Program-made: the position numbers and the translations under genes
Notes under the pieces: generated by a model
Told to the model about the DNA's origin: nothing
Seen by the model: only the letters and a program-made list of their open reading frames with translations
Databases searched by the model: none
Part shown: one piece after another, positions 2,239-25,173 of the stretch
How the letters are laid out: each line of letters opens with the position of its first letter
How positions within the stretch are numbered: position 1 is the stretch's first letter
Assembly (NCBI RefSeq): GCF_000196555.1
Contig: NC_015067.1
Coordinates: 1-32,000 of the forward strand
Length of the DNA stretch: 32,000 bases
Reading direction: 5' to 3'
From: Bifidobacterium longum subsp. longum JCM 1217
GTDB taxonomy: Bacteria; Actinomycetota; Actinomycetes; Actinomycetales; Bifidobacteriaceae

Positions 2239-3363
2239 ATGAAAGTCGAAATCGATACTGCAGCCCTGGCCGACGCCGTAGCCTGGACCTCCCGAGTCAT
2301 CGACGCACGTCCCTCCAACCCGATTCTCGCTGGTGTCAAGCTGGAAGCCATTGACGGAACGCTGCAATTCTCCGCCTTCAACTACGAGATTTCCGCTCGC
2401 CACCACATCGAAGCCGGCGTTGACGAAGCCGGTTCCGTACTGGTTCAGGGCAAGCTGCTGGCCGATATCACCAAATCGCTGCGTTCGGAGAAAACGTACC
2501 TGGTCACCGACGGCTCCACGCTGACCATCACGTCCGGCAAGTCGAAGTTCACCTTGCAGCTCATGCCCGACACCGAGTACCCGGATCTGCCTGTGGTACC
2601 GGCCATGCTCGGCCAAGTCGATGCCCCGACTTTCGTTCAGGCCGTGAACCAGGCGTGCGTTGCCGTCTCCCGCGAAGAAAACCGCCCGGTACTGACCGGC
2701 GTTCGCATGCAATTCCAAGGCGACAAGGTCGTCATGACCTCCACCGATCGCTTCCGTTTGGCCCGCGCCACCTTCACTTGGACTCCGCAGAACCCGGACG
2801 TCGACACCACCACGCTGGTTCGCGGCTCCCTGCTCAAGGATGTGGCCCGTGCTCTTGACGAGCACCAGAACATCCGCCTTGATTTCGATGCCGATAGCCC
2901 GACGCTGCTCGGCTTCGAAAACGCCGGCCGCGTCTCCACCTCCCAGCTCATCGACGGTGAATTCCCGGCGGTCGACCGCCTGTTCGCCGACGAATATCCG
3001 ATTCAGGCCGTAGTCAACAAGCAGGATTTGCTCGACGCCATCAGCCGTGTGGCTTTGGTCGCCGAACGCAATGCTCCGATTCGCATGACCTTCACCGGTC
3101 AGGAAGTGGCGCTGTCCGCCGGATCGGTCGACGAGGCTCAGGCCAACGAAACACTGGACATCGACATGGATGGCGACGACATCACCGTGGCATTCAACCC
3201 GTCCTACCTGAAGGAGGGTCTGTCCGCCGTAACCGAACCATTCGTGCGCATCAAAATGACGACCCCGGTCAAGCCGGTCGAGTTCAATGGCCAGCAGGAA
3301 GCTGATTCCGACGAGTCCATGGACTACCGATACCTGCTCGTGCCGATGCGCTTTAACAACTGA
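2239..3363 (+). CDS. dnaN: DNA polymerase III subunit beta (sliding clamp)
   Basis: 374-aa ORF in the conserved position after dnaA. It has a three-domain clamp-like sequence, and GAAGGGA lies about 10 nt upstream of the ATG. Confidence 0.96.
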   Translation: MKVEIDTAALADAVAWTSRVIDARPSNPILAGVKLEAIDGTLQFSAFNYEISARHHIEAGVDEAGSVLVQGKLLADITKSLRSEKTYLVTDGSTLTITSGKSKFTLQLMPDTEYPDLPVVPAMLGQVDAPTFVQAVNQACVAVSREENRPVLTGVRMQFQGDKVVMTSTDRFRLARATFTWTPQNPDVDTTTLVRGSLLKDVARALDEHQNIRLDFDADSPTLLGFENAGRVSTSQLIDGEFPAVDRLFADEYPIQAVVNKQDLLDAISRVALVAERNAPIRMTFTGQEVALSAGSVDEAQANETLDIDMDGDDITVAFNPSYLKEGLSAVTEPFVRIKMTTPVKPVEFNGQQEADSDESMDYRYLLVPMRFNN

Positions 3364-3390: not shown

Positions 3391-4629
3391 ATGCACATCT
3401 CCCGTCTCGCACTCGACCACTACCGCTCATGGAGTCAGGTAGTGGTCGATTTCGTACCAGGCGTGAATATCCTGTTCGGCAAGAACGGTCTGGGCAAAAC
3501 CAATCTGGTGGAAGCCGTCGAAGTGCTGTCCACCGGATCGAGCCATCGCACGTCCAGCACGTTGCCGCTGATCGAACGCGGGCAGACCACGGCCACCATC
3601 CGCGCGAACGTCGCTGATGATGCCGGTCAAACCACTACGTATGAAGCGTCAATTCATGCGCGTGGTGCCAACCGAGCCCGCATCAACTCGGGGTCGTCGC
3701 TGTATCTGCGCGATATCATCGGCAAGATTCCCAGCGTTTCCTTCACTCCCGAAGATCAGCGGTTGGTGTCCGGCGATCCGGGAGCACGCCGCACCATGAT
3801 GAATCAGGCTGCGGCTCTGCTCGAGCCCGGATACATGCAGACGTTGCAACAGTTCACGCGCATCGCCAAACAGCGTGCCACATTGTTGAAGCAATTGAAT
3901 GCCAATGTCAACAATGGCCAGCCGATGGATGCGGTTCTGAGCGGTTTGGAAATCTGGACCGGCCAGTTCATCGAAGCCGGTGTGGCGTTGACCCGTATGC
4001 GCGCTCATGTGATCGGTCTGCTTGCCGAGCCATTTGCCGCGATTTACGCCGACTTGGCCGGTGCCGGCGAGCAGGTGACGCTCACTTATGCGCCTTCATT
4101 CGACGAAGTGCTGATGTTCGACGATCCGCATCCGCAGATTAGCGAGCATTTCCAACGCATCTACCCCGGTGAAGTGGCTCGCGGCGTGAACCTTATCGGT
4201 CCGCAGCGCGATGACATGAACCTTGAGTTGGGCGGTATTCCCGCCCGCGAGTTCGCTTCGAACGGCGAGATGTGGACGATGGCGTTGGCCTTGAAAATGG
4301 CATTGTTCGAAATAGTGCGTGACCGGTTGGGATTGCAGCCGATTGTGATTCTCGATGATGTGTTCGCCCAGCTTGACGACAGCCGGCGCACGCAGATTCT
4401 TGATTTCGCCAGAAAACAGGATCAGGTGCTGATTACCGTGGCCGCTGAAGGCGATGTGCCCGACTATGAATCGGCCCATCGCATCGACGTGGCCGCACTG
4501 GACGAACCAGCTTCCGTGATATTGCCAACTCTGGGCAATTTGTCCAATTCGCGGGAAAATGAGAGTTTGGGTGGGTATGACGAAAAAACCGCGGTGGACA
4601 GCGCGTCCGTAGAACGGAAAGTGTCATGA
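3391..4629 (+). CDS. recF: DNA replication/repair protein RecF
   Basis: 412 aa with an N-terminal Walker A FGKNGLGKTNLVEA and a Walker B-like IVILDDVFAQLD. It sits in the conserved dnaN-recF position. Confidence 0.95.
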   Translation: MHISRLALDHYRSWSQVVVDFVPGVNILFGKNGLGKTNLVEAVEVLSTGSSHRTSSTLPLIERGQTTATIRANVADDAGQTTTYEASIHARGANRARINSGSSLYLRDIIGKIPSVSFTPEDQRLVSGDPGARRTMMNQAAALLEPGYMQTLQQFTRIAKQRATLLKQLNANVNNGQPMDAVLSGLEIWTGQFIEAGVALTRMRAHVIGLLAEPFAAIYADLAGAGEQVTLTYAPSFDEVLMFDDPHPQISEHFQRIYPGEVARGVNLIGPQRDDMNLELGGIPAREFASNGEMWTMALALKMALFEIVRDRLGLQPIVILDDVFAQLDDSRRTQILDFARKQDQVLITVAAEGDVPDYESAHRIDVAALDEPASVILPTLGNLSNSRENESLGGYDEKTAVDSASVERKVS

Positions 4630-5228: not shown

Positions 5229-7367
5229 ATGACCTTCATGACGGAGGTTGACCCTGTAGTCACGGAAGGAAGCCTGTTGGCAGACGAAACCAGCAAAGAG
5301 GAGCAGCTGAAGGCGGCTGCGGAACGCATCAACAATGCGGAATTGACCGAAGGCGAACTTGACGAATCCATGGCCCCCGAGCATTATGAGGCCTCCGATC
5401 TGAGGGTGCTCGAAGGACTTGAGGCCGTGCGTATCCGCCCCGGTATGTACATCGGTTCCACCGGCCCGCGCGGTTTGCACCACCTGGTCTATGAGATCGT
5501 CGACAACTCGGTCGACGAGGCGCTGGCCGGATACGCCAGCCATATCGAGATCACCATTCTGCCGGACAACGGCATCCGTGTGGTGGACGATGGTCGAGGT
5601 ATCCCGGTCGATGAGGTGCCCGGCGAGGGCGTCTCTGGTGTGGAGACCGTGATGACCAAGCTGCACGCCGGCGGCAAGTTCGGCGGCGGCGGTTATGCAG
5701 TGTCCGGCGGTCTGCACGGCGTGGGCATCTCCGTGGTCAACGCACTCTCCACCCGCGTGGACATCGAAGTGCGCCGTCAGGGCTTCCACTGGACCCAGAC
5801 GTACATCGACCAGCACCCCACCGCGCCCTTGAAGCAGGGCGAGCCGATGACCGAAGGCGAGTCCACCGGTACGTCTGTGACTTTCTGGGCCGACCCGAAG
5901 ATTTTCGAGACCACCATCTACGACTTCGAGACGCTGCGTTCCCGCTTCCAGCAGATGGCCTTCCTGAACAAGGGCCTCAAGATCAGCCTGACCGACGAGC
6001 GTGAGAACGACCAGGCCGGCGACGAGGTGGCCGGCGACGCCGCGGACGAGCCCGGCGCAAAGCACCAGACCGTCACCTACCAGTACCTCAACGGCATCAA
6101 GGACTACGTCGACTATCTGGTCAAGGTGCGCAAGGCCATGCCGGTGGAAGAGGACGTCATCAGCTTCGAGGCCGAAGACCTGAAGCTCGGCATCTCCGCC
6201 GAACTCGCCATGCAGTGGACCACTGCCTACTCCGAGGCCGTGCACACCTTCGCGAACACGATTTCCACCACCGAGGGCGGCACTCACGAGGAGGGCTTCC
6301 GCGCCGCGCTGACCTCGCTGGTCAACCGTTACGCGCGAGACAAGGGCATCCTCAAGGACAAGGACGAGAACCTCTCCGGCGACGACGTGCGTGAAGGCCT
6401 GACCGCCGTGATCTCCGTCAAGCTCACCAACCCGCAGTTCGAAGGCCAGACCAAGACCAAGCTCGGCAACTCCGAAGCCAAGACCTTCGTGCAGCGCGTG
6501 ATGACCGACAAGCTCGGCGACTGGTTCGATGCCCACCCGGCCGAGGCCAAGAACATCATCCAGAAGGCCATCGAGGCATCCCGCGCCCGTCTGGCCGCCA
6601 AGAAGGCCCGCGAGAACACCCGCCGCAAGTCCATCTTCGAGTCCGCCGGCATGCCCGACAAGCTCAAGGACTGTCAGTCGAACAACCCGGAAGAGTGCGA
6701 GCTGTTCATCGTGGAGGGTGATTCCGCAGGCGGCTCCGCCATCCAGGGCCGCAACCCGATCACGCAGGCCATCCTGCCGCTGCGAGGCAAGATCCTCAAC
6801 ACCGAGCGCGCCAGCCTGGACCGCATGATGAAGTCCGACACCATCGAATCGCTGATCACCGCGGTCGGCGGCGGCTACGGCGAGGACTTCGACATCTCCA
6901 AGGTCCGCTACCACAAGGTCATCATCATGGCCGATGCCGATGTGGATGGTGCGCATATCGCCACCCTGAACCTGACGCTGTTCTTCCGCTACATGCGCCC
7001 GATGATCACCGCCGGCTACGTGTACGTGGCCATGCCGCCGCTGTATCGCCTGAAGTGGACCAAGGGCCCGCACGACTTCGTGTACACCGACGCCGAGCGC
7101 GACCGCGTGCTCGCCGAAGGCAAGGCCAACGGACGCCAGCTGCCCAAGGGCGAAGGCATCCAGCGCTACAAGGGTCTGGGCGAGATGAGCTACCAGGAGC
7201 TATGGGAGACCACCATGGACCCCGAGCACCGCATTCTGAAGCAGGTGCACATCGAGGACGCCGCCGCGGCCGACGAGACCTTCTCGATGCTGATGGGCGA
7301 TGAGGTCGAACCCCGCCGCCTCTTCATCCAGCGCAACGCCAAGAACGTGCGTTGGATCGATGCGTAA
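5229..7367 (+). CDS. gyrB: DNA gyrase subunit B
   Basis: 712 aa with the GHKL ATPase motif LHHLVYEIVDNSVDEA, the Toprim motif EGDSAGG and PLRGKILN. The exact start is uncertain because in-frame ATGs also occur at 5238 and 5370. Confidence 0.95.
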   Translation: MTFMTEVDPVVTEGSLLADETSKEEQLKAAAERINNAELTEGELDESMAPEHYEASDLRVLEGLEAVRIRPGMYIGSTGPRGLHHLVYEIVDNSVDEALAGYASHIEITILPDNGIRVVDDGRGIPVDEVPGEGVSGVETVMTKLHAGGKFGGGGYAVSGGLHGVGISVVNALSTRVDIEVRRQGFHWTQTYIDQHPTAPLKQGEPMTEGESTGTSVTFWADPKIFETTIYDFETLRSRFQQMAFLNKGLKISLTDERENDQAGDEVAGDAADEPGAKHQTVTYQYLNGIKDYVDYLVKVRKAMPVEEDVISFEAEDLKLGISAELAMQWTTAYSEAVHTFANTISTTEGGTHEEGFRAALTSLVNRYARDKGILKDKDENLSGDDVREGLTAVISVKLTNPQFEGQTKTKLGNSEAKTFVQRVMTDKLGDWFDAHPAEAKNIIQKAIEASRARLAAKKARENTRRKSIFESAGMPDKLKDCQSNNPEECELFIVEGDSAGGSAIQGRNPITQAILPLRGKILNTERASLDRMMKSDTIESLITAVGGGYGEDFDISKVRYHKVIIMADADVDGAHIATLNLTLFFRYMRPMITAGYVYVAMPPLYRLKWTKGPHDFVYTDAERDRVLAEGKANGRQLPKGEGIQRYKGLGEMSYQELWETTMDPEHRILKQVHIEDAAAADETFSMLMGDEVEPRRLFIQRNAKNVRWIDA

Positions 7368-7434: not shown

Positions 7435-10086
7435 GTGGCAGATGAAAACAACACCGGCGACGAGCAGTTCACGCCGGACGGCTCGATGGAGCCGTTGAGC
7501 CCGCAGGAGGCGGACACTACCGACTACGGCCTGATGGACACCGGCGAACGCATCCAGCGCAAGGACCTGCAGCAGGAGATGCGCGAGTCCTATCTGGCGT
7601 ATGCCCTCTCCGTGATCGTCGAGCGCGCCCTGCCGGACGTGCGCGACGGTATGAAGCCCGTGCATCGCCGCGTGATCTACGCGATGTACGACGGCGGCTA
7701 CCGCCCCGATCGCGGCTACAACAAGTGCTCCCGCGTGGTCGGCGACGTGATGGGTAAGTACCACCCGCACGGCGACTCCGCCATCTACGACACTTTGGTG
7801 CGTATGGCCCAGTCCTGGTCGATGCGCAACATGCTCGTCGACGGCCAGGGCAACTTCGGCTCCCCCGGCGACGACCCGGCCGCCGCCATGCGTTACACCG
7901 AATGCCGTATGGCCCCGCTGGCCATGGAAATGGTGCGCGACATCGACAAGGACACCGTCGACTTCGTGCCCAACTACGACGGCAAGACCCAGGAGCCGAC
8001 CGTGCTGCCGGCCCGCTTCCCGAACCTGCTCGTCAACGGCTCCGCCGGCATCGCCGTCGGCATGGCCACCAACATCCCGCCGCACAACATGCGCGAGGTG
8101 GCGGACGGCGTCCACTGGGCGCTCGACCACCCGGACGCCAGCCGCGAGGAACTGCTGGAAAACCTGATCCGCATCATCAAGGGACCGGACTTCCCCACCG
8201 GCGCCACCATCCTCGGCCACAAGGGCATCGAACAGGCCTACCGCACCGGCCGTGGCCTGATCACCATGCGTGCCGTGGTCAACACTGAGGAGATCAACGG
8301 CCGTATGTGCCTGGTGGTCACCGAACTGCCCTACCAGGTCAACCCGGACCGCCTCGTCGTCTCCATTCGTGAGGCCGTGCGCGACGGCAAGATCCAGGGC
8401 ATCGCCGACATGCGCGACGAGACCTCCGGCCGTACCGGCCAGCGCCTCGTGCTCGTGCTCAAGCGCGACGCCGTGCCGAAGGTGGTCCTGAACAACCTGT
8501 ACAAGCACTCCCAGCTGCAGCAGACCTTCGGCGCCAACATGCTGGCGCTGGTCGACGGCGTGCCGCGCACGCTGAGCCTGGACGCCTTCATCCGCCATTG
8601 GGTGAACCACCAGCTCGACGTGATCGCCCGCCGCACCGCGTACCTGAAGCGCGAGGCCGAAGAGCGCGACCACATCCTGCAGGGCTATCTGAAGGCCCTC
8701 GACATGCTGGACGAGGTCATCGCCCTCATCCGTGCCTCCGAAGACACCGACACCGCACGTACGGGCCTTATGGGGCTGCTGGACATCGACCAGGTGCAGG
8801 CGGACGCCATCCTGGCCATGCAGCTGCGCACGCTGACCCGCATGAACCGCGACAAGATCGTGGCCGAGCATGAGGAATTGCAGCGCAAGATCGCCGACTA
8901 CATCGACATCCTCGCCAAGCCGGAACGCCAGCGCAAGATCATCGGCGACGAGCTCGACGAGATCGTCGCCAAGTACGGCGACGACCGCCGCACCAAGATC
9001 CTGCCGTTCTCCGGCGAGATGAACGTCGAAGACCTGATCGCCGAAGAGAACGTGGTGGTCACCGTGACCCACTCCGGCTTCATTAAGCGCACCAAGGCCG
9101 ACGAATACCGCTCCCAGCACCGCGGCGGCAAGGGCATCAAGGGCACCAAGCTGCGCGAGGACGACGTGGTGGATCACTTCTTCCTGACCTCCACGCACAA
9201 CTGGCTGCTGTTCTTCACGAACAAGGGCCGCGTGTACCGCATCAAGGCCTACGAGCTGCCCGAGGGCTCGCGCGACTCCAAGGGCCAGCACGTGGCCAAC
9301 CTGCTGCAGTTCGCGCCTGATGAGTCCATCCAGACCGTGCTGTCCATCCCGAACTACGAGGTGGCCAAGTATCTGGTGCTCGCCACCCGTTCCGGCAAGG
9401 TCAAGAAGACCCCGCTGGCCGAGTACGATTCCCCGCGCCAGGGCGGCCTGATCGCCGTGCGCCTCATGGCCGACGAGAACGGCGAGAACGCCGACGAGCT
9501 CATCGGCGCCGCGCTGTGCAACGCCGAGGACGACATCATCCTGGTCTCCAAACTCGGCATGAGCCTCAAGTTCCAGGCCGACGACGAGCAGCTGCGCCCG
9601 ATGGGCCGCCAGACCGCCGGCGTGCAGGGCATGAAGTTCCGTAACGACGACAGCCTGCTGGCCATGGATGTGGTCCCTGGCGACTCCGACAAGGACCTGT
9701 TCGTGGTCACCAACGAGGGCTTCGCCAAGCGCACCGCCATCAGCGAATACCGTCTGCAGGGCCGCAATGGCCTGGGTATCAAGGCCGTGCAACTGGTCGA
9801 GGGCCGTGGTGCTCTGGTCGGCGCGCTCGTGGTGTCCGAAGACGATCAGGTCATGGCCATCATGAAGTCCGGCAAGGTGATTCGCTCCAACGTGGACGAA
9901 GTCAAACGCACCGGGCGCAACACCCAGGGCGTGACCTTTGCCAAGCCCGACAAGGGCGACACGATTCTCTCCATCGCCCGTAACGAGGAGAAGGACGAGC
10001 CCGAGGATGGCGGCGATGCCGCGGCGAACGGCACCGCCGAGACCGCACAATCCGGCGAGAATGTGAACAACGCGGACGAGGCGTGA
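7435..10086 (+). CDS. gyrA: DNA gyrase subunit A
   Basis: 883 aa with a GTG start preceded by AAAGGAA. It has the active-site region AAAMRYTE, a QRDR-like GDSAIYD, and a C-terminal beta-pinwheel repeat region. Confidence 0.97.
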
Positions 10087-10155: not shown

Positions 10156-10722
10156 ATGAGCGAGAATCTCGAAGACAACGAGCCCCGGATCATACCGCCG
10201 GCAGTCGGCAATACGCAGAACGAGCATGTCGAGCCGCTGATCGGTACTGAGCACGCTCCCCGCGTGGCACGCTCCGTGTCCAGCGATCCGGAAGAATCCG
10301 CGTTGCCTTCTTCAGGTGCCGCCACTCCCGTGCGTCCGGCACCTCGCCGTAGCGCCCCCAGGGCTCGCCGCATGAGCTTGTCGCTGACCCGCGTGGATGC
10401 TTGGTCCGTGGCCAAGGTGACGTTCATGCTGTCCATCGCCGTGGCGATTATTCAGGTCGTTGCCTCCGCGATCGTATGGGTGCTGCTTGATGTGGTCGGT
10501 GTATTCAGCCAGATTACGCAGATTGTGTCTTCCACCGGTCTTGATGCAGGCGGTTTCGATCTCAAGAACGTGTTGTCCCTTACCACCGTGGTCTCCGGCG
10601 TCACCATCTTCTCGATTGTTGAAGTGGTGATCTTCACCCTGCTGGCCACCATTGCGGCACTGATCTACAACGTGGTCAGCTCGCTGGTCGGCGGCGTGCA
10701 CGTCACGCTCGGCGACGACTGA
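10156..10722 (+). CDS. DUF3566 family membrane protein (conserved downstream of gyrA in Actinobacteria)
   Basis: 188 aa with a disordered N-terminus, then LSLTRVDAWSVAKVTFMLS and several hydrophobic helices. AAGGAGAAAC lies upstream of the ATG. Confidence 0.85.
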   Translation: MSENLEDNEPRIIPPAVGNTQNEHVEPLIGTEHAPRVARSVSSDPEESALPSSGAATPVRPAPRRSAPRARRMSLSLTRVDAWSVAKVTFMLSIAVAIIQVVASAIVWVLLDVVGVFSQITQIVSSTGLDAGGFDLKNVLSLTTVVSGVTIFSIVEVVIFTLLATIAALIYNVVSSLVGGVHVTLGDD

Positions 10723-10828
10723 TATAGCTATACTGACGGAACTCCCCTCAGTGAACCGCACCCCGGTTGTTGGACTGAAGTAATTCAGATTCGATGATCG
10801 GAGGTGCGGTTTCTTATGTGTGGGGTTC

Positions 10829-11132
10829 GTAGGCGTCGTTGCTGGGCCGAGACTTGGGACTCCGGCGACGCTGGGGGTGGCAGGCGTCGGTGTTGGGACA
10901 GGTTTTGTATCTCTGACGACGCTGTGGAGGGCTTACCGTCGTCAGCGGTACAGATCTTGGAGTTCTGCCGACGCTGAGGGTGCGTTCTGTGTCGTATGCG
11001 TCCAATTCTTGGCCCTCTGCCGACGCTGGGCACAGCAAGCGTCGTTGCTGGGCCAAGTTTTGGACTGCCGCCGACGCAGAGAATGCACACAGTGGTGTTG
11101 GTCTGCCAGCGTGTGGCAGCTTGGCGCCGCTG
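10829..11132 (+). repeat. six degenerate tandem units of about 52 bp, each able to fold as a hairpin (candidate structured ncRNA array)
   Basis: The phase marker GACGCTG (variants GACGCAG, GCCGCTG) starts at 10867, 10918, 10970, 11022, 11073 and 11126, giving periods of 51, 52, 52, 51 and 53. Outer stems GCGTCG/CGACGC are at 10833-38/10866-71, 10884-89/10917-22 and 11039-44/11072-77. Inner CCRAnnnTTGG mini-hairpins are also present. Confidence 0.8.
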
Positions 11133-11179
11133 GGGGGGAGTCATGAGTCCCATTCCAACTCCCCCTTATTGACCACTTA

Positions 11180-11217
11180 GGGGTGCATCCCAACACATGG
11201 GGTGCACCCCCTTTTTT
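11180..11217 (+). terminator. rho-independent terminator closing the repeat array
   Basis: GGGGTGCA (11180-11187) pairs with TGCACCCC (11203-11210) and is followed by CTTTTTT. It is preceded by a second hairpin, GGGGGAGT...ACTCCCCC (11134-11165). Confidence 0.75.
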
Positions 11218-11405
11218 CTTGTTGTGCTACGGGGTTCCAGTCGCATTTTTTTCGGTGATATTTTGAACGCGAAGACAGGCTGGGAAATGCCCGATAGTCG
11301 TGTTCCCCTCAGCAGGTGAAGCCCTGCTTTCAGGCTGCAAAACCGACTCGGGTGTTCCGAAAGCGGCTTTCGTTGTTGTACATCGATACATAAGAGAGAA
11401 CACCC

Positions 11406-12119
11406 ATGAAAAACACCATTATTCGTGCTGCCGGTGTGCTGTTGGCTGCAAGCATGATATTTGGCGGTGCGGCAGCCACTGCATCGGCCGCGGAAGCAAC
11501 GTCGCCGAGCACCGGCACCACCAGCAGCACGCAAGCCGCGGAATCCATCAATCGCGAATGGGTGCTGAATCCCGCGAACAACACTGAGCTGGCGGCTCTC
11601 GGCACTATACAAGGCGGATCCCAGACGTTCGACGGGCTGACCATCGATGCCACTGCAAACGGTGCCAAGTTTGCGCCGCGCGCCAATGACACCCAGATCA
11701 ACGCCGGAACCATCATCAGCATCCCGGTGCCAGCCCACACCAATACAGCCACCATCACCCTTGCGTTGTCCGGCGGCACCACCACTATTACCGCGGATGC
11801 CGGTGAAGTGAGCAGCGACAACACAGTTATCGCCTTGCCTGCTGCGGAGTCGGCTCGTACGGTAAACGTCACCTTCACTGCCCAGACCTATCTCAACGGC
11901 ATCGCCCTTGCCGAACAGCAGCCGGAACCCGAGTTCCCCGGTACGCCCACGGTCGCGGCCAAAGACACGAACTGGGACTTCACGGAAACCGGCATCGATC
12001 GACCGGCCGTGCAGGGCCTACCGACAACTACCAAGGCGTCGCCATCGACGCTCGGGCGCAAGGCGCCAAGTTCAACCCGCGTACTACCGCGGCAAGCGGC
12101 GGCAGCGATACTCAGGTGA
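11406..12119 (+). CDS. N-terminal fragment of a secreted pectinesterase (signal peptide plus first repeat domain); the frame is lost near 12015-12022
   Basis: Signal peptide MKNTIIRAAGVLLAASMIFGGAAATASA. The domain containing GLTIDATANGAKFAPRANDTQINAGTIISIPV is repeated in the next ORF's frame. The last roughly 30 codons look like out-of-frame read-through. Confidence 0.7.
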   Translation: MKNTIIRAAGVLLAASMIFGGAAATASAAEATSPSTGTTSSTQAAESINREWVLNPANNTELAALGTIQGGSQTFDGLTIDATANGAKFAPRANDTQINAGTIISIPVPAHTNTATITLALSGGTTTITADAGEVSSDNTVIALPAAESARTVNVTFTAQTYLNGIALAEQQPEPEFPGTPTVAAKDTNWDFTETGIDRPAVQGLPTTTKASPSTLGRKAPSSTRVLPRQAAAAILR

Positions 12120-13702
12120 ACGCTGGAACCATCCTGTACATTCCGGTCGCACAGGCCGAGGGCGGCGCTACAGTCACCGTGAAGGGCCAGCTGTACGGTC
12201 CTACGCTCAAGCTCGACGGTACGGACATCACCACCGGCACTGCTGTAACCATCGCAACCGACAGCACGCGCTACGTGCCGCTCTCCGTTGAAGGCACGGG
12301 CAGCCTGTACCTGACCGGCATCGCCATCGACTACGCGGCCGGCTCCCCCGCCGCCACCAGCCACACGGTCACCGTGGGCCCGAACGGCCAGTACCGGACC
12401 ATTCAAGCCGCTCTGGATGCTAACGACTCTTCCGAAACCGACCGACTAGTGCTGAAGATCACTCCGGGCGACTATCGCGAGAAGATCACCGTGACCAAGC
12501 CGGGCGTCACCTTCGCCAACGCCGACGTGACCGCCAAGCGCGCGGTGACGATTCGCGCCAGCTACTATTCGTCCAACACATTCGATGCCGACGGCAAGTT
12601 TGTGCCGCAGGATGAATTCGACCTTGGCACCAACAAGTGCGCCACCGTGACCATTGGCGCGGGTGCCACAGGTTTCTCCGCCTACGGCATCACCTTCCAG
12701 AACGATTACAACGTGGTGGATCACACGGCGGCGGGCGAGCAGACGCCGGCCGTGGCGCTGAACACCCAGGCAGACAAGGTGTACCTGAAGAACAGCCGCA
12801 TCATCGGCCGTCAGGACACTCTGTACGTGCAGGGCGCCGGCAACCGCGTGTACGTGGACGGCGGCTACATCGAAGGCACGGTTGATTTCGTGTTCGGCGA
12901 CGCCAACGCCTACTTCGCCGGCACCGAGCTGCACATGGCCGCGTTCGCCGGCAAGAACAACGGCTACTTCACCGCCGCCAACACCAAGAAGTCCGGCGTG
13001 GGCCTGGTGTTTGACCGCTGCAACTTGACCGTTGCCGCAGCATATGACGACGATGCCAAGCTTTCGCTGGGCCGCCCGTGGCAGACGTTCGCGCAGTACA
13101 CGCAGGTGCGTAAGGGCGACGGCAGCAGCTATGTGACCGGCGTGGATTTGGGTACGAAGAACTCGGCGTATACGGACACTTCCTCGGCCGTGACCTACCT
13201 CGACAGCACGATGTCCAGCAAGATCACCAAGAATCGTTGGAATGTGTGGACCAGCAAGAACCAGAGCGGCAAAAGCGTGGACGTGACCTTCCACGATGAT
13301 GTGCGATTCGCGGAATACGCCAGCCACGATGAAACCGGCGCGCTGCTTGATCCGGCTGATTATAAGAACGTCGTGCTCGGCTCGATGTCTGCTTTGGATG
13401 AGGCTCAGGTGCAGGCGAAGCGTGCTGAATTGCTCGCGGCACTGGGCTTCGGCTCGGCGGCTGGTCAGTGGGTTGTGCCGGATGGCGCGTGGCCATTCGC
13501 TTACGACCCGAACTACTCGACCGGCACTGATGTGCAGCCGACTCAGCCGGGCGGCAACGCCTCGCCTAACGCGGATTCGGCGGCCAAGGCCGACACCATG
13601 CCGGAAACCGGCTCGGCCATCATTGCGGTGGTTGTAGTCGCCGTGCCGCTGCTCGTTGCTGGCTTGGCGCTGGTAGCAGTGCGCCGCAATCGCCAGCAGT
13701 GA
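12116..13702 (+). CDS. pectinesterase (carbohydrate esterase family 8) catalytic part with an LPXTG-like cell-wall anchor; together with 11406..12119 it forms one frameshifted gene
   Basis: CE8 signatures are GRQDTLYV, GTVDFVFG and LGRPWQ. The C-terminus MPETG plus a hydrophobic helix plus RRNRQQ is a sortase-type sorting signal. This frame stays homologous upstream of 12116 (TDNYQGVAIDARAQGAKFNPR), back to about 12020. Confidence 0.85.
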   Translation: MNAGTILYIPVAQAEGGATVTVKGQLYGPTLKLDGTDITTGTAVTIATDSTRYVPLSVEGTGSLYLTGIAIDYAAGSPAATSHTVTVGPNGQYRTIQAALDANDSSETDRLVLKITPGDYREKITVTKPGVTFANADVTAKRAVTIRASYYSSNTFDADGKFVPQDEFDLGTNKCATVTIGAGATGFSAYGITFQNDYNVVDHTAAGEQTPAVALNTQADKVYLKNSRIIGRQDTLYVQGAGNRVYVDGGYIEGTVDFVFGDANAYFAGTELHMAAFAGKNNGYFTAANTKKSGVGLVFDRCNLTVAAAYDDDAKLSLGRPWQTFAQYTQVRKGDGSSYVTGVDLGTKNSAYTDTSSAVTYLDSTMSSKITKNRWNVWTSKNQSGKSVDVTFHDDVRFAEYASHDETGALLDPADYKNVVLGSMSALDEAQVQAKRAELLAALGFGSAAGQWVVPDGAWPFAYDPNYSTGTDVQPTQPGGNASPNADSAAKADTMPETGSAIIAVVVVAVPLLVAGLALVAVRRNRQQ

Positions 13703-13789
13703 TTGAAAGCGTTGCTGCGAACCGGACCTGGTGACCTTGTAGACGGGGGGCTATCTCCGTTGAAAGAGGTACATTGATGGCTTTGCAGA

Positions 13790-13908
13790 AAGCCAACTGC
13801 TTTCAAAGGGGTACCTGAACCACGAAACCTCGAGTATAAGCGTTGCAATGACGGCGTTTATACTCGGGGTTTCCCATATTCAGTACCCCTCTGAATGCAG
13901 TTAGCTTG
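13790..13908. repeat. 119-nt near-perfect long hairpin (imperfect palindrome) between convergent genes
   Basis: There are three stacked stems. AAGCCAACTGC pairs with GCAGTTAGCTT (13790-800 / 13898-908). GGGGTACCTGAA pairs with TTCAGTACCCC (13808-19 / 13880-90). CCTCGAGTATAAGCG pairs with CGTTTATACTCGGGG (13828-42 / 13855-69, two G-U pairs). Confidence 0.75.
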
Positions 13909-13999
13909 GATCGATGATCATATCCAAGAATTCACTCGTATAGTGGTGCGTAATGCTTACGTATTTGGGATAGCACTTGTTGCTCGTTGTACATATAGC

Positions 14000-14035: not shown

Positions 14036-14040
14036 ACGCT

Positions 14041-14091
14041 ACTGCTTAGTACTGCTTAGTATTGCTCAGCACTGCTCAGCGATTGCTCAGC
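14041..14091. repeat. five tandem copies of a 10-11-bp unit RYTGCTYAGY
   Basis: The copies are ACTGCTTAGT, ACTGCTTAGT, ATTGCTCAGC, ACTGCTCAGC and GATTGCTCAGC. They end 9 nt from the gdhA stop codon at 14100-14102. Confidence 0.8.
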
Positions 14092-14099
14092 GGCAAGCG

Positions 14100-15470
<1,371 letters not shown>

Positions 15471-20303: not shown

Positions 20304-20376
20304 TGGAGCTAGCCGGGTTCGAACCGGCGACCCTCTGCTTGCAAAGCAGATGCGCTACCAGCTGCGCTATAGCCCC
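20304..20376 (-). tRNA. tRNA-Ala (anticodon TGC)
   Basis: The reverse complement is GGGGCTATAGCGCAGCTGGTAGCGCATCTGCTTTGCAAGCAGAGGGTCGCCGGTTCGAACCCGGCTAGCTCCA. It has a cloverleaf, a G3:U70 pair, anticodon loop TTTGCAA and T-loop GGTTCGAAC. CCA is not encoded. Confidence 0.95.
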
Positions 20377-20387
20377 GTGAGAAAAAA

Positions 20388-20407
20388 AGAGCGGCTCGCG
20401 GCCGCTT
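20388..20407 (-). terminator. short GC hairpin with a T7 tract between the two tRNA genes (weak terminator or processing signal)
   Basis: On the minus strand the sequence reads GCGGC cgcga GCCGC followed by TCTTTTTTTC. Confidence 0.35.
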
Positions 20408-20418
20408 CATTTTTCCTG

Positions 20419-20492
20419 TGGGCCCGGGAGGACTTGAACCTCCGACCTCATCCTTATCAGGGATGCGCTCTAACCAGCTGAGCTACGGGCCC
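20419..20492 (-). tRNA. tRNA-Ile (anticodon GAT)
   Basis: The reverse complement is GGGCCCGTAGCTCAGCTGGTTAGAGCGCATCCCTGATAAGGATGAGGTCGGAGGTTCAAGTCCTCCCGGGCCCA. It has a 7-bp acceptor stem, anticodon loop CTGATAA and T-loop GGTTCAAGT. Confidence 0.95.
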
Positions 20493-20630: not shown

Positions 20631-21316
20631 TCACACCGTAATGCTGCGGTTACACCTCCCTCTCTGCGCAGAAATGTCCAATACATATGAGGCTTCTGCT
20701 GTTTTCGTGGGTTGGGTTCTTGGTTGTGGTGGGCGTATGTCGAGTCCGCCGCGGCGGAGCATGACAAGCGCGATGGGATTGTTCGCGTGGTGGAAGCCGT
20801 AGGCCATGCGGATGGTGACCTTGATCCTGTTGTCGGACGCCTCGAGCCTGGCGTTTGAACAGCCCAATTCGATTGTCCCGAGGATGTCGGGCCCATGACG
20901 GCGGATCTTCCGGGCGGGTTCGACGATCTCGGGGATGCGGCTGTGGGACGCCCGGAACACCCGGCGGTTCAGTTCGGTCCGGGCCTGGTCGCCGGTCGTT
21001 TGGGCATCGTCCGGAGGGGTTCCCTGAGCCGCCATGAACGGTAGGGCCGGCCCTTGGGGTCCGTGTCCCGCAGGTTCCCGGACGCCTCGGACCGTCTGTC
21101 GGTCAGCTTGCCGGGGTTCTTCAGGACGGTGTATCTGCCGCCGCGCATGCGCTTGACGGATTTCTCGTCCCCGTCGCGGCGCTGCGCTTCGACGGCTACA
21201 CGGACGGGGCGGACCTGTGGCAGTACGTCATCGCGAACTTCGGCACCCTCTGCTGGGTGCCATCATGCTCGGCTGTCTCGTCATGGTGTCCTCGGCCACC
21301 GCGAAGGCGGGGCAGA
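20631..21316 (-). pseudogene. ISL3 family transposase remnant (C-terminal portion, internally frameshifted, 5' end cut off by the IS30-family element)
   Basis: The minus-strand frames give GGRYTVLKNPGKLTDR...SWRLREPLR. After a frameshift near 20990-21010 they give SHSRIPEIVEPARKIRRHGPDILGTIELGCSNARLEASDNRIKVTIRMAYGFHHANNPIALVML, which is typical of ISL3 transposase C-termini. Confidence 0.75.
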
Positions 21317-21386
21317 TTCTAGTGGTGGTTGCAACACCTGAGGTTTGAGCGGCCTTCCATGGTCACGTTGTCGGTTGTTGAGGTTA

Positions 21387-22418
21387 TCACGCGGCGTCGA
21401 GCAGTTCGATGATCTTCTCGCTTGGTTTCATGAACCCGAGGGTTTTGCGTGGCCGGTCGTTGAGTTCCTCGGCGACCGCGTCGAGGTAGTCCTCCGGGTA
21501 GACGGATAGGTCGGTGCCTTTGGGGAAGTACTGGCGCAGGAGCCCGTTGGTGTTCTCGTTGGTGCCGCGCTGCCACGGGGAGTGCGGGTCGCAGAAGTAG
21601 ACGGCCATGTCCAGCGAGGCGCCGATCCGTTTGTGCAGGGCGAGTTCCGCTCCCTGGTCCCAGGTCAGGCTGTTGCGCAGGAGTTTGGGCAGGTGCTGCA
21701 TCTTGTCGATGATGGCCTGCTGGACGTGTTCGGCGTCGTGCCCGTCGGGCAGGTGCAGCAGGATCGTGAACCTGGTGGTGCGCTCGACGAGCGTGCCGAT
21801 GGCGCTTTTGTTGCGGCTGCCGGTGATGAGATCGCCCTCCCAGTGGCCCGGGACCGCCCGGTCCTCGATCTCCGGGGGTCGCTCCGAGATCATGGCCATG
21901 GGTTCGCGGAAACGGGGTTTGCGGCCTTGGCCGCCTTGGGGTCTGCGGGCGGTTCGCCCCTGCCTCATGGCGCGTTTCAGCTCCTGCTTGAGTTCGCCCC
22001 TGGCCTGCAGGTAGATGGCCTGGTAGATCGTCTCGACGCTCGCGTGCATATCCCCATTATCCGGGAAGTCCAGCCTCAGCCGGTTGGCTATCTGCTCCGG
22101 GCTCCAATGCCTGCGCAACCCGGCGGCGATCTCGTCCCACAGTCGCGTGCCCTCGGCCGCCTTGCGCGGTTTGGGGCGTTTGAGCCGGTCCGCGGCCTTC
22201 TGCTGGGCGCGGTAAGGCTCGTAACCGCCGGACTCGGGATTCCTGTTGCGCTCGACCTCGCGGCTGACCGTGCCGGGGTCGCGGCCCAGCAGGCGGGCGA
22301 TGGCGCGGATCGAATCGCCCAGACGCAGACGGTCCGCGATCTGGATGCGCTCCTCCTGGCTCAGGTAGCGCGGATGGAGGGTCTTGGGTTTGTCCATGGT
22401 GGAACGATACCAGTCCAC
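21387..22418 (-). CDS. IS30 family transposase, C-terminal roughly 346 codons; the N-terminal 77 codons lie at 24877..25107 beyond the IS21 insertion
   Basis: It has the HTH YLSQEERIQIADRLRLGDSIRAIARLLGRDPGTVSREVERN and a DDE core (GHWEGDLI...TWDQGAE...). The frame is open upstream to 22427 (KPLVDW) and then runs into the IS21 end. Confidence 0.85.
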   Translation of the reverse strand: MDWYRSTMDKPKTLHPRYLSQEERIQIADRLRLGDSIRAIARLLGRDPGTVSREVERNRNPESGGYEPYRAQQKAADRLKRPKPRKAAEGTRLWDEIAAGLRRHWSPEQIANRLRLDFPDNGDMHASVETIYQAIYLQARGELKQELKRAMRQGRTARRPQGGQGRKPRFREPMAMISERPPEIEDRAVPGHWEGDLITGSRNKSAIGTLVERTTRFTILLHLPDGHDAEHVQQAIIDKMQHLPKLLRNSLTWDQGAELALHKRIGASLDMAVYFCDPHSPWQRGTNENTNGLLRQYFPKGTDLSVYPEDYLDAVAEELNDRPRKTLGFMKPSEKIIELLDAA

Positions 22419-22517
22419 CAGGGGTTTCTCGTTTGTATTTAGTCAAGTCGGTGTTTCGTGTTTCGTCACTAATTTTTTTCGGTTTTCGGCATGAGGAGTG
22501 CCGGCCGGTGGTTTGTT

Positions 22518-23279
22518 TTACTGGTTGTCCGTCTTGCCGAACATGAGGGCCTGGCTGACGCGTCGGCTGGGGCCGGTGAATTCGATGAGGCGTCCGTGGT
22601 GGACGATGCGGTCGATGATCGCGGCGGCGAGTTTGTCGTCGGCGAAGATCGTCCCCCATTTGCTGAACTCGATGTTCGTGGTGAAGATGATGCTGCGCCG
22701 CTCGTAGCTGCCGGCGATGATCTGGTAGAGGAGGCGGGCCCCGTCGATGTCGAAGGGCACGTAGCCGAACTCGTCGAGGATGATCAGGTCGGCACGGGCG
22801 AGGTCTTTGAGCAGGTTGTCGAGGGCGCCGTCGCGTTTGGCCTTGCCGAGCTGGAGCACGAGCTCCGCGGTCTGCCGGAACCTCACGCTCCTGCCTTGCT
22901 CGATGGCGAGCATGCCCAGGGCGGTGGCCAGGTGGGTCTTGCCGCGTCCCGTCTTGCCGTAGAACACGAGGTCCTGCGCCTTGGCCACGAAATCGAGGCC
23001 GGTCAGCTGCTCCTTGGTGTATCCGTCGGGCAGGCGCACGTTCGCGAAGTCGTAGCCGTCGAGGCTTTTGGGCACCGGGAACCGGGCCTGGCGCATGAGC
23101 CTTGCCCGTTTGGAGGCCTCCCTGTTGGCCAGTTCCGTGGCGAGCATGCGGTCGATGGCGTCCAGTTGGCGGGGCGTGGCCCATTCGAGCGTTTCGTCGA
23201 TGGTGGCCTGCGAGATGAACAGGCTCCTCGCCCGCTCGCGCAGCGGGCCGGGGTCGGTCCGTCCGTTCTTCTGGTTCAC
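22518..23279 (-). CDS. istB: IS21 helper ATPase IstB
   Basis: Walker A GKTGRGKTHLA and Walker B LIILDEFGY. The GTG start at 23279 overlaps the istA stop (GTGA) and has AAGGAGG upstream. The longer ORF to 23591 is a high-GC extension. Confidence 0.9.
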   Translation of the reverse strand: MNQKNGRTDPGPLRERARSLFISQATIDETLEWATPRQLDAIDRMLATELANREASKRARLMRQARFPVPKSLDGYDFANVRLPDGYTKEQLTGLDFVAKAQDLVFYGKTGRGKTHLATALGMLAIEQGRSVRFRQTAELVLQLGKAKRDGALDNLLKDLARADLIILDEFGYVPFDIDGARLLYQIIAGSYERRSIIFTTNIEFSKWGTIFADDKLAAAIIDRIVHHGRLIEFTGPSRRVSQALMFGKTDNQ

Positions 23280-24742
23280 TCGTCCTCCTTGGTGTAGGCG
23301 ATGTCGTATTCGCTCAGGTCCACGGGGTCGTCGTAGGCCACGGGTCCCAGGCCCGAGGCGTGGCGTGCCGCGGCCAGACATACCCCGGCCCGGTCCGTGC
23401 CTCCGGTGGATTCGAGGATCTCGAGCATGCCGGCCACGGCCGCCCGCCAGCCGCTCTCGCCGTCGGCGTGCAGCAGGGCACGCAGGCTGTCGCGCCGCGT
23501 GGCCTCGTCCTGCGCGTCGATCCATTCGCGAAGCGGGTCGGGCATCGCGTCGCGCACCCGGCTGTTGCGCCAGGCCGCCGGCCGGTCGCACAACAGCCCG
23601 AGCTGGCTCGACGGGTCGCCGCTGTCGGTCGGCTTGTCCCCGTAGGACCTCGGATGCGTGATCACGCGTTTGCCTTCGGCATCGAGGATCTCCACCTCCA
23701 GGGCCCTCAGGCCGACGATCATCTCATGGCCGGCGTGTTCGGGTCCGGCCGCGTACCGGTGGCGGCCCTGGACGGTGACGTTTCCGTATTTGTCGGCCTT
23801 CATCCTCGTCCACGTGACCACGTCGAACGGCTTGGCGGGCAGGGGCAGCAGCGCCTTGCGATCATCCTCGAACAGGCCGGCCTGGCTCTCGCCCTTCCTG
23901 TAATGGTCCTTGTCCCCCAGCTCGAGACAGCGGTCGGGAAGGCGCAGGTTGAAGTTGTCGAGGCTCCACACGCTGGGCACCGGCACGAACAGCCTTCGGC
24001 GCACGGCCCCGACCCTGGCCTCGACCGCGCCCTTCTCGTGGCCCGAGTACGGGTTGCAGAACGAGTACTCGAACCCGTAATGGGCCTGGAACGCCTGGAA
24101 CAGGCGGGTCAGGCGGATCTCGTCGAACCGTCGGCGGCCCACGCCGGCGGCATTGTCGTACACGATGCGCCGGGGCACCCCGCCCAGCCATTCGAACAGG
24201 TTAAGCAAAGCCTGACACGTGCATTCCGCGTTCTCCCCGGGCATCAGCTGGCACGGCGAGATGTTCGAGTACGGGAAATCCAACACGAAATGCCGCATCC
24301 GCGTCACGACGCCCCGGTAGCGCACGTCGACCTGGCCGAAGTCCGCCTGGCATTCGCCCGGATGCCACGACAGGTCCAGGAAACCCATCTCGCGCTCCGC
24401 CATGAACTCACGCTTCAACCGGGCCACCGTCCGGGTCACCGTCGACAACGACGCCTCCACCCCGTACTCGTCACGCAACCGCTCGTGGATGCGCGTCGCC
24501 GTGTGACGTTGCTTGTGCCAGGTCTCCCGGTCCTCGGCGAGCATGCCCTCGATCACGGGAATCCACTCGTCGAGCACCGAGCCACGGCGTCTCCTTACCG
24601 GAGGCCTGGCCGACAGGTCGTCGGCCTTGAGATACTTGCGCACGGTCGGCTCGCTGACCTTCTCGCCGCGCGCGATCGAGGCGACGGACTCCCCATTCCT
24701 GCGCCTCTGACGGATAGACTGTATTTTGGGCATGCTGATCAT
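23276..24742 (-). CDS. istA: IS21 family transposase IstA
   Basis: 488 aa with an N-terminal HTH (SIARGEKVSEPTVRKYL) and a DDE region (ECQADFG...YDNAAG...GHEKGAVE). Confidence 0.93.
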   Translation of the reverse strand: MISMPKIQSIRQRRRNGESVASIARGEKVSEPTVRKYLKADDLSARPPVRRRRGSVLDEWIPVIEGMLAEDRETWHKQRHTATRIHERLRDEYGVEASLSTVTRTVARLKREFMAEREMGFLDLSWHPGECQADFGQVDVRYRGVVTRMRHFVLDFPYSNISPCQLMPGENAECTCQALLNLFEWLGGVPRRIVYDNAAGVGRRRFDEIRLTRLFQAFQAHYGFEYSFCNPYSGHEKGAVEARVGAVRRRLFVPVPSVWSLDNFNLRLPDRCLELGDKDHYRKGESQAGLFEDDRKALLPLPAKPFDVVTWTRMKADKYGNVTVQGRHRYAAGPEHAGHEMIVGLRALEVEILDAEGKRVITHPRSYGDKPTDSGDPSSQLGLLCDRPAAWRNSRVRDAMPDPLREWIDAQDEATRRDSLRALLHADGESGWRAAVAGMLEILESTGGTDRAGVCLAAARHASGLGPVAYDDPVDLSEYDIAYTKEDE

Positions 24743-24876
24743 TTGCCTTTCCGGCCCTTTCCCGAATGGATTCGAAGCACCATCAGGCTAAGGCCCACGG
24801 GTGGTCGGCATGCCTTTCTGCCTAAACCCGAAAAAACTACGTGACTAAAACCTCAACTCCCTATTGAACACATACA

Positions 24877-25107
24877 CTCGTTCCTTCCCGTGGCGCGCGT
24901 CCTGCCGTTGCGCCACGCCTTGCCGGTGCGTTTCGAGACGCCGACCGCGTGCGCGGCCTGGGTGAAGTTCATGCCTTCCTCGTCCAGCAGGCGCACGTAC
25001 TCGGCGCGTCTCGCCTCGCACATCAGCTTCCTCGTCGGATATTCGACGCCGTTGAACGTCCAACGGTGTTCCCCGCCACGGTCTTCGTTTCGGTGGCTTC
25101 TGGTCAC
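24877..25107 (-). pseudogene. displaced N-terminal 77 codons (first HTH) of the IS30-family transposase
   Basis: A GTG at 25107 is preceded by AAGGAGG with a 5-nt spacer. The sequence reads ...LLDEEGMNFTQAAHAVGVSKRTGKAWRNGRTRATGRNE and joins in-frame to KPLVDWYRST at 22427 once IS21 and one TSD copy are removed. Confidence 0.8.
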
Positions 25108-25173
25108 CTGACCCTCCTTGCGGTAGGTCAGGTGTTGCAACGATCACTAGAACCCGCCCGGTGTTCGAGGAGT

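Follow-up and report, generated by a model that had tools for sequence, protein, structure and literature searches.

A tandem array of diverged hairpin units behind the gyrB-gyrA-DUF3566 operon of Bifidobacterium longum: a possible insulator or backup terminator

Directly downstream of the gyrB-gyrA-DUF3566 operon, the chromosome of Bifidobacterium longum carries an array of five to seven diverged units of 51-53 nt, which was born by tandem duplication and is still altered by unequal recombination. We analysed this array (positions 10821-11130) in B. longum subsp. longum JCM 1217 within a window of 32,000 nucleotides, positions 1 to 32,000 of the forward strand of contig NC_015067.1 (assembly GCF_000196555.1), to which all coordinates refer unless a locus number is given. 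The array is outside any described family, and the known kind to which it belongs is the intergenic palindromic repeat cluster. Tentatively, at a probability of roughly one in three, we favour the reading that it is a cis-acting insulator, backup terminator or 3'-end protector, comparable to bacterial interspersed mosaic elements (BIMEs), that acts on plus-strand read-through transcripts.

In the proposed mechanism, polymerase would read through the terminator-like hairpin T1 behind the DUF3566 gene and produce plus-strand RNA carrying the array, in which GC-rich, mostly U-less stacked hairpins would pause or end transcription and may also block 3'-exonucleases. In this way the array would keep the variable genes downstream insulated from the essential operon and would lend stability to the 3' end of the read-through RNA. 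We infer both the transcription of the array and its effect on termination, insulation or stabilisation from its position and folding. It lies directly after T1 and ahead of the promoter of the following variable gene, and in strains of the window type a canonical plus-strand terminator (T2) follows it, with nothing else to terminate there. Transcripts of Bifidobacterium breve often end at GC-rich stem-loops that have no U-tract and not at classical terminators (PMC5746004). Repetitive extragenic palindromes (REPs) and BIMEs are known as terminators, mRNA stabilisers, topological insulators and gyrase sites (PMC3333891), and the role that we propose for the array is the one known from such clusters in enterobacteria. 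The evidence for a plus-strand structure, namely the fold asymmetry, the G-U-compatible single nucleotide polymorphisms (SNPs) and the local G/T skew, is no more than suggestive.

Architecture and predicted folding of the array

An earlier note, made from the letters of the window alone, had described six tandem hairpin units. The periodic repeats are confirmed, but they comprise five clear units and one degenerate unit instead of six equal ones, with lengths of 51/51/52/52/51/53 nt. A repeat search returned five in-register copies starting at 10844, 10895, 10947, 10999 and 11050 (spacing 51, 52, 52 and 51), which are 64-76% identical to each other, i.e. 24-36% diverged. Tandem Repeats Finder reported nothing at this locus because the copies are too diverged. 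The array is nevertheless real, as the distribution of its core CTGCCGACGCTG is not that of chance: with up to two mismatches it matches 11 times in the 32 kb, five of these matches constitute the array, all on the plus strand and evenly spaced, and the remaining six are at chance level (6.65 expected).

Unit 1 (10821-10871, 51 nt) consists of a linker, the arm GCGTCG..CCGAG and the arm CTTGG..CGACGC. It is followed on the same plus strand by unit 2 (10872-10922, 51 nt), unit 3 (10923-10974, 52 nt), unit 4 (10975-11026, 52 nt), unit 5 (11027-11077, 51 nt) and the degenerate unit 6 (11078-11130, 53 nt), which has a stable hairpin of its own at 11092-11130 (-22.7 kcal/mol). Each unit is a quasi-palindrome, and the array as a whole is a chain of alternating inverted arms, GCGTCG-8nt-CCAAG and then CTTGG-8nt-CGACGC. 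The motif CGACGC starts at 10866, 10917, 10969, 11021 and 11072 and its variant CGCCGC at 11125, so that the phase markers given earlier were right to within 1 nt. The stems had likewise been read correctly: the outer stem GCGTCG/CGACGC is exact in units 1, 2 and 5 and altered to GTGTCG in unit 4 and to CCGTCG in unit 3, and the inner hairpins CCGAgacTTGG, CCAAttcTTGG and CCAAgttTTGG are present, with units 2 and 3 carrying ACAGgttTTGT and ACAGatcTTGG as inner motifs instead.

The array does not encode a protein, as had also been proposed. No Pfam match was obtained for the open reading frames (ORFs) overlapping it, its period is not a multiple of three, and some strains have lost one unit (51 or 52 nt). 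Over the array, gene callers mostly make no call, and most assemblies are without one. A coding reading could draw on the ORFs of 151-188 aa that were called in some assemblies, where 19 clusters of them contain the array and all map to this locus. These ORFs, however, start at differing positions and shift frame between assemblies, and one of them traverses scaffold Ns and is W/C/R-rich junk. A small protein encoded by the ORF at 10820-11146 on the plus strand (108 aa) or at 10785-11153 on the minus strand (122 aa), both without Pfam match, was rejected, and we put its likelihood at practically nil.

The region 10810-11225 folds at -211.7 kcal/mol on the plus strand (z -7.7) and at -165.5 kcal/mol on the minus strand (z -5.5), on both strands far more stably than shuffled sequences. 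For the array alone (10821-11135) the values were -160.3 on the plus versus -116.8 kcal/mol on the minus strand, with z-scores of -6.3 versus -3.8, and the GC skew is locally +0.21 at the array versus about -0.1 to +0.06 in the flanks. The claim that the array forms hairpins is supported by these folds, in which the plus strand does better than the minus strand, but the intra-unit fold that had been drawn is one of two equally possible registers. Pairing within units gives six hairpins with a summed energy of -90.1 kcal/mol, and pairing of arms across the unit boundaries gives five hairpins that sum to -100.3 kcal/mol, so that in the folding model junction pairing is at least as stable as intra-unit pairing. 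The predicted global minimum-energy fold uses two of these junction hairpins. In J2 (10899-10959, plus strand, -24.4 kcal/mol) the 3' arm of unit 2 would pair with the 5' arm of unit 3 (23-nt arms, 78% complementary), and in J4 (11000-11065, plus strand, -28.3 kcal/mol) the 3' arm of unit 4 would pair with the 5' arm of unit 5 (28-nt arms, 75% complementary). Energies, paralogue comparison and SNPs are compatible with both registers and do not separate them.

Covariation for the array stems was not above that of shuffled controls (86.8% of cells paired, one pair with double changes). Across 16 arrays the stems contain 91 G-T versus 27 A-C oppositions, a share of 0.77 compared to ~0.68 expected from composition (p 0.02).

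Flanking terminators and variation among B. longum strains

The terminator-like element T1 (10753-10820, plus strand) follows immediately on the DUF3566 stop codon and precedes the array. It consists of a near-perfect 60-nt hairpin (10753-10812) followed by UUUCUUAU, folds at -50.6 kcal/mol (z -5.5) and, judged by its sequence, looks like the intrinsic terminator of the gyrB-gyrA-DUF3566 operon. Only 8 nt separate T1 from the array. Since T1 precedes it, the array is not simply the 3' untranslated region of the operon. The same layout of a terminator hairpin followed by an array was found at the loci L054, L063, L055 and L070 of other bifidobacteria.

On the other side of the array, a hairpin at 11132-11166 on the plus strand, in which GGGGGAGT (11134-11141) pairs with ACTCCCCC (11158-11165), precedes T2 (11180-11217, plus strand), which was recognized by the terminator scan as a canonical intrinsic terminator with a 13-bp stem (11180-11210) plus T-tract. 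T1 and T2 both have the canonical build of an intrinsic terminator, a GC-rich stem-loop with a U-tract behind it, and the repeat units themselves carry no U-tract. The hairpin and terminator that the earlier note had taken for the end of the transcript thus exist, but both lie in a variable cassette outside the conserved element. Homology among B. longum haplotypes stops at 11129/11130, the 3' edge of unit 6, and resumes near 13955, which defines a strain-variable cassette at 11130-13954 with its left breakpoint exactly at the end of unit 6. The window-type cassette holds the GGGGGAGT hairpin, T2, an unknown 237-aa ORF (11406-12119), which is the next gene in the window, and a gene for a pectinesterase-domain protein (12116-13702). 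In the other haplotype there are a seventh degenerate unit, sometimes a hairpin with a 20-bp stem, a DUF234 ATPase gene and a LacI remnant; the GGGGGAGT hairpin is absent from these ATPase-type haplotypes, in which the sole promoter-like site (L002 4342-4369) sits between the array and the next gene. The T2-bearing cassette is present in only about half of the strains.

Variation within the species was compared across 33 B. longum loci, 26 of which have the same number of units. Exactly 52 nt are deleted in L349-L354 (10964-11015, from within unit 3 into unit 4) and 51 nt, again one unit, in L355 (11019-11069); each of these deletions is the loss of one unit through recombination between CTGCCGACGC cores. 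In L003 an element of the IS30 family of insertion sequences (ISs), 1,399 bp in length, is inserted at 11114-11116 in the loop of the unit 6 hairpin with a 3-bp (TGG) duplication. This insert (L003:3962-5360) is an intact copy of the IS30-family element that is split in the window. Unit loss and IS insertion are both rare among the loci.

The array contains ~20 SNP sites. All five transitions within stems (10899 C/T, 10900 A/G, 10972 C/T, 11093 T/C and 11130 C/T) retain pairing via G-U on the plus strand, among them C10899T and A10900G in unit 2 and C10972T in unit 3, which makes C-G into U-G. One singleton transversion (11076) disrupts a pair, and all three G/A SNPs fall outside the stems. 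This pattern is suggestive of plus-strand pairing at a p of about 0.03 and with small numbers.

Compared to the divergent lineage L011-L015, the array differs by 2.3-3.6%, whereas the four-fold degenerate sites of gyrA differ by 10-14.5%. In haplotype-matched comparisons, divergence at four-fold sites amounted to 10-15% for gyrA and 10.5-12% for DUF3566 versus 3.1-4.5% for the downstream ATPase gene, and the array itself diverged by 0.6-1.9% between lineages, 2-4 times below the ATPase four-fold sites. Because the ATPase divergence is so far below that of gyrA and DUF3566, the segment after DUF3566 looks more recently shared, and this drop suggests, at the level of sequence, that recombination had a boundary at the DUF3566 stop codon or close to it. 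Strong purifying selection on the array was rejected, as the contrast with the gyrA four-fold sites became smaller when the ATPase gene next to the array served as neutral control; relative to that gene, the constraint on the array is a modest signal.

These data bear on the alternative that the array is a functionless minisatellite, i.e. that a palindromic unit was duplicated as a by-product at a recombination-prone boundary between the conserved origin-proximal cluster and variable DNA, with hairpins and strand skew following merely from its palindromic descent and from mutation bias. We regard this as unlikely though credible. The position exactly at the haplotype breakpoint 11129/11130, the tolerated whole-unit deletions and IS insertion, the missing covariation and the recent exchange of the segment all speak for it. 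Against it, the units are 24-36% diverged among themselves, but as a whole the array hardly varies among B. longum lineages, where it is less diverged than the neighbouring four-fold sites by the factor given above, and the stem transition SNPs are compatible with pairing.

A further alternative, which takes up the proposal of the earlier note, is a stand-alone structured non-coding RNA (ncRNA) of ~300-400 nt transcribed from the plus strand, e.g. a multi-hairpin sponge or scaffold that would present UGRGG loops to an RNA-binding protein. The plus-strand fold bias and the G-U-compatible SNPs would fit such an RNA, as would the plus-strand terminator after the array in window-type strains and the motif UGRGG, which is semi-conserved beside the CGACGC stem in B. 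longum, Bifidobacterium boum and Bifidobacterium thermophilum. However, no promoter-like site was found in the 8 nt between T1 and the array, nor upstream of the array in B. longum in general or before the arrays of three other species, and about half of the strains lack the terminator. For such an RNA gene, neither a promoter of its own nor, outside the window-type haplotype, the terminator was found. The variable unit number, the lack of significant covariation and the confinement to B. longum, plus a two-unit version in two distant species, also argue against it.

Comparison with RNA families gave no match either. When the window was scanned with cmscan against Rfam 15, only two tRNAs reached the gathering score, the region 10700-11420 yielded only weak, unrelated chance matches at E<=10, and 20 related loci gave 0 matches. 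The Rfam motif Bifido-meK, which is said to consist of hairpins, comes from the same genus and had been named as a possible precedent, has no covariance-model match in the window or the 20 loci, at the gathering score or at E<=10 in the region. Sponge small RNAs (sRNAs) of the CsrB/RsmZ type consist of repeated hairpin modules with a short purine-rich motif at or in the loops. The array resembles them in its repeated hairpins and its semi-conserved purine-rich motif, but its own promoter was not found, its unit is much longer (~52 nt) and its loops are poorly conserved; to our knowledge, no cognate protein of the CsrB/RsmZ type is known in bifidobacteria. A discrete structured ncRNA of ~400 nt, be it a sponge, a scaffold or another kind, is possible but appears distinctly unlikely to us.

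Tandem hairpin arrays at the same position in other Bifidobacterium species

A hidden Markov model (HMM) of the unit, searched over 79 other species, gave no match except for a weak one in B. boum, and by this measure the array is confined to B. longum-type loci. In B. breve and further near relatives the spacer is short and free of an array. With a covariance model of the junction hairpin, strong matches were obtained at the same position in B. thermophilum (L055 3683-3787; 43 and 36 bits) and B. boum (L063 3681-3783), and there was no match in about 75 other species. Both B. boum and B. thermophilum JCM 1207 possess two units (CUGCCGACGCUGAG...AGCGUCGG) with homology to that of B. longum, in which the conserved element is the junction-type hairpin in the J4 register, CUGCCGACGCU-loop-AGCGUCGGCAG. 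These units sit after a canonical terminator and a C-rich, G-poor spacer of ~75 nt, whose composition looks like that of a Rho-utilisation site. Between the two species, a G-U and a U-G pair of unit 1 become A-U and C-G, and in unit 2 one wobble and one mismatch are gained.

Periodicity scans revealed tandem hairpin arrays of unrelated sequence in the same spacer after the DUF3566 terminator of ~13 other species, in spacers of 0.3-1.4 kb and with periods of about 41-73 nt and longer; about one in six of the other bifidobacteria thus has such an array. Bifidobacterium aesculapii (L054 3752-4385) has 12-13 hairpins with a ~52-nt period, of which five form a 248-nt higher-order repeat. These hairpins (TGTGTGGAGCG-nnnn-TGCTCCACACA) each have two inverted TCCACA cores that resemble a DnaA box at 7/9 positions. 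In the B. thermophilum group the period is 73 nt (L070 3694-4076, L065 3764-3930 and L059 3856-3949). A period of 62 nt was found in B. callitrichos (L068 3499-3667 and 3996-4214), B. rousetti (L085 3573-3718, 3930-4094 and 4471-4635) and B. pullorum (L032 3675-3788), and one of 63 nt in B. pseudolongum (L057 3558-3725). B. choloepi has perfect 14-bp hairpins (L087 3589-3746) and B. ramosum 25-bp stems (L092 3744-4308), and tandem hairpin units were also found in B. leontopitheci (L082 3876-4145) and at L081 (3845-4215). No coding-like ORFs overlap these arrays apart from antisense gyrA shadows and a slight overlap with the next gene in L057 and L032, and their fold z-scores are strongly negative, usually more so on the plus strand.

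By a crude seed score, uncorrected for the length of the intergenic DNA, 14 of 77 species have an array in the first 1.2 kb after DUF3566, compared to 4 of 75 in the following 1.2 kb (p 0.02), and in coding DNA upstream the score was positive in 2 of 158. The periods cluster at ~41, 51-52, 62-63 and 73 nt, near whole helical turns, which is a post hoc pattern from few independent families. An origin of the 73-nt repeats from tRNA genes was rejected, as 29 loci showed no tRNA or tRNA-like gene at a distance of up to 3 kb. A search of metagenome and viral collections with the pattern CGACGCTG..CGACGC..CGACGC returned unrelated GC-rich DNA, and nhmmer identified no true unit among the 240 matches listed. 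Four loci (L021, L041, L067 and L081) are contigs with bifidobacterial gyrA-DUF3566 that stand in GTDB under genomes of the names Slackia, Dysosmobacter, Parabacteroides and Senegalimassilia. All four are probably mis-binned contigs of metagenome-assembled genomes, and L021 shows 100% identity to B. longum.

For the minisatellite explanation, these comparisons cut both ways. The array is absent from the nearest relatives, and other species show fast turnover and higher-order repeats such as the 248-nt super-repeat of B. aesculapii, both as expected for a neutral by-product. Yet homologous units are kept at this locus in the distant B. boum and B. thermophilum, and many species have an array at this single intergenic position.

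Genomic setting, related repeat systems and significance

The array belongs to the origin-proximal region of the B. longum chromosome. The window begins with dnaA (1-1503), followed by dnaN (2239-3363), recF (3391-4629), gyrB (5229-7367) and gyrA (7435-10086), and this cluster is closed by the plus-strand gene of a DUF3566 membrane protein (10156-10722; Pfam PF12089, E 7.5e-37) that is identical in many B. longum genomes. Nine matches to DnaA boxes (TTATCCACA, TTGTCCACA, TTGTGCACA or TTTTCCACA) lie at 1855-2089 in the spacer between dnaA and dnaN, presumably oriC. The possibility that the array is itself a cluster of DnaA boxes was rejected, as the boxes are confined to that spacer and none is inside the array.

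Several further features of the window were noticed. Genes for tRNA-Ala(UGC) and tRNA-Ile(GAU) are located at 20304-20492 on the minus strand. In many other Actinobacteria this pair is found directly 3' of gyrA and the DUF3566 homologue; in the window it lies in inverted orientation at a distance of 10 kb, consistent with a rearrangement downstream of DUF3566. The split IS30-family element of the window (21309-25158; HTH_38 and rve transposase at 21387-22418, minus strand) is interrupted by a second insertion at 22434-24876 with a Mu-like rve transposase (23276-24742). The window also has a 10-bp tandem repeat, ACTGCTCAGC, with ~5 copies at 14040-14092, just downstream of a glutamate dehydrogenase gene (14100-15446, minus strand) and its terminator hairpin; strain L002 has only ~2 copies, which makes it a small variable-number tandem repeat (VNTR).

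The location next to gyrB-gyrA, 9 kb from oriC, is one of the points in favour of a function of the array at the DNA level, as a REP/BIME-like cluster that would serve as a site for gyrase or a nucleoid protein, as a cruciform-prone topological insulator or through hairpins on the lagging-strand template. Alternating inverted arms with linkers match BIME-2 (PMC3333891), copy number varies between strains, and an IS has entered the loop of a hairpin, a behaviour also known from REPs (PMC1525189). Moreover, the array periods lie near whole helical turns, a post hoc observation, and G-T wobbles are tolerated in hairpins of single-stranded DNA, with the plus strand being the template of the lagging strand here. 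Nevertheless, no other copy of the unit exists in the 32-kb window and 19 of 19 array ORF clusters belong to this locus, so that there is no sign of the high copy number that defines REPs. The fold asymmetry and the G-U-type SNPs argue against a recognition site in duplex DNA, DnaA boxes are missing from the array, and the helical-phase pattern rests on few independent repeat families. We consider a DNA-level role rather unlikely.

Among known systems, BIME-2 and clustered REPs of Escherichia coli and other Proteobacteria are similar to the array in being extragenic tandem imperfect palindromes of alternating orientation with variable linkers, located at the 3' ends of transcription units, variable in unit number between strains and targeted by ISs. 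The REP/BIME features found here are accordingly the alternating palindromes, the tandem arrangement with linkers, the extragenic position, the copy-number variation and the IS insertion. Unlike the array, REPs are dispersed in hundreds of copies, have a conserved GTAG/CTAC foot and often a cognate Y1 transposase, and BIME copies at one locus are well conserved, whereas the array units are 24-36% diverged. Only one locus of the array was seen, in a comparison that covered the 32-kb window and the array ORF clusters; a GTAG/CTAC foot is not evident in the unit consensus, and none of the 18 window ORFs scanned against Pfam is a Y1 transposase. Tandem or U-less ("I-shaped") terminators of Actinobacteria, including bifidobacteria, share with the array the GC-rich hairpins on the coding strand after a stop codon and the arrangement as backup behind a canonical terminator. 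They usually consist of two or three unrelated hairpins, however, compared to phased arrays of 5-13 homologous units over 0.3-1.3 kb.

The VNTRs of Mycobacterium known as mycobacterial interspersed repetitive units (MIRUs) are actinobacterial, intergenic tandem repeats with units of ~50 bp in or after operons, and their copy number varies between strains. MIRU copies are near-identical, highly polymorphic, dispersed at about 40 loci and often phased with the flanking ORFs. The array has in common with MIRU-VNTRs the ~50-bp units, the intergenic setting at an operon end and the changes by whole units between strains, but its units are diverged (64-76% identical) and palindromic, its copy number is nearly fixed, its period is not a multiple of three and a single locus was seen. 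A remnant of a CRISPR array was rejected, as the whole unit including the "spacer" part is homologous (64-76%), and there were no cas domains among the window ORFs scanned against Pfam. In a literature search, no paper was found in which tandem repeats of B. longum are connected with gyrA, nor an sRNA study of bifidobacteria that covers the locus, and papers on VNTRs and on DUF3566 contributed nothing further.

Several points weigh against the favoured reading of a cis-acting element on read-through transcripts. That polymerase passes T1 is an assumption. Covariation equals that of shuffled controls, and the stems are kept mainly by sequence conservation. A mutation bias of the leading strand could cause the G/T richness and inflate the G-T counts. 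To a large extent, the low divergence of the array finds its explanation in the age of the segment behind DUF3566, which is younger than gyrA and DUF3566. As close relatives such as B. breve and most of the species surveyed are without any array and some strains show unit loss or an IS insertion, any function must be dispensable or redundant. Finally, five or six hairpins behind a good terminator look excessive for termination alone.

A broader proposal is that bifidobacteria carry undescribed, fast-evolving plus-strand hairpin arrays that are tied to the end of the gyrB-gyrA-DUF3566 operon, in which the units turn over while position, strand bias and helical-turn-like periods persist. Such arrays could couple supercoiling, gyrase action or an unknown factor binding RNA or single-stranded DNA to the expression of the gyrase operon or to the insulation of the origin domain. 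We consider this proposal a long shot, but the recurrence of arrays at one locus across the genus, with turnover of the sequence, is the most interesting and least explained aspect of our analysis.

On the practical side, the array gives rise to spurious ORF calls of 151-188 aa in public assemblies and marks a boundary of the gene content that varies between strains. Should it be no more than a minisatellite, it would be of use as a strain marker and as an annotation caveat. The array adjoins the genes by which chromosomal supercoiling is set in an important commensal of the human gut, and a functional array would be the first REP/BIME-like module for insulation or termination described in bifidobacteria, one in which the architecture is conserved while the sequence turns over.

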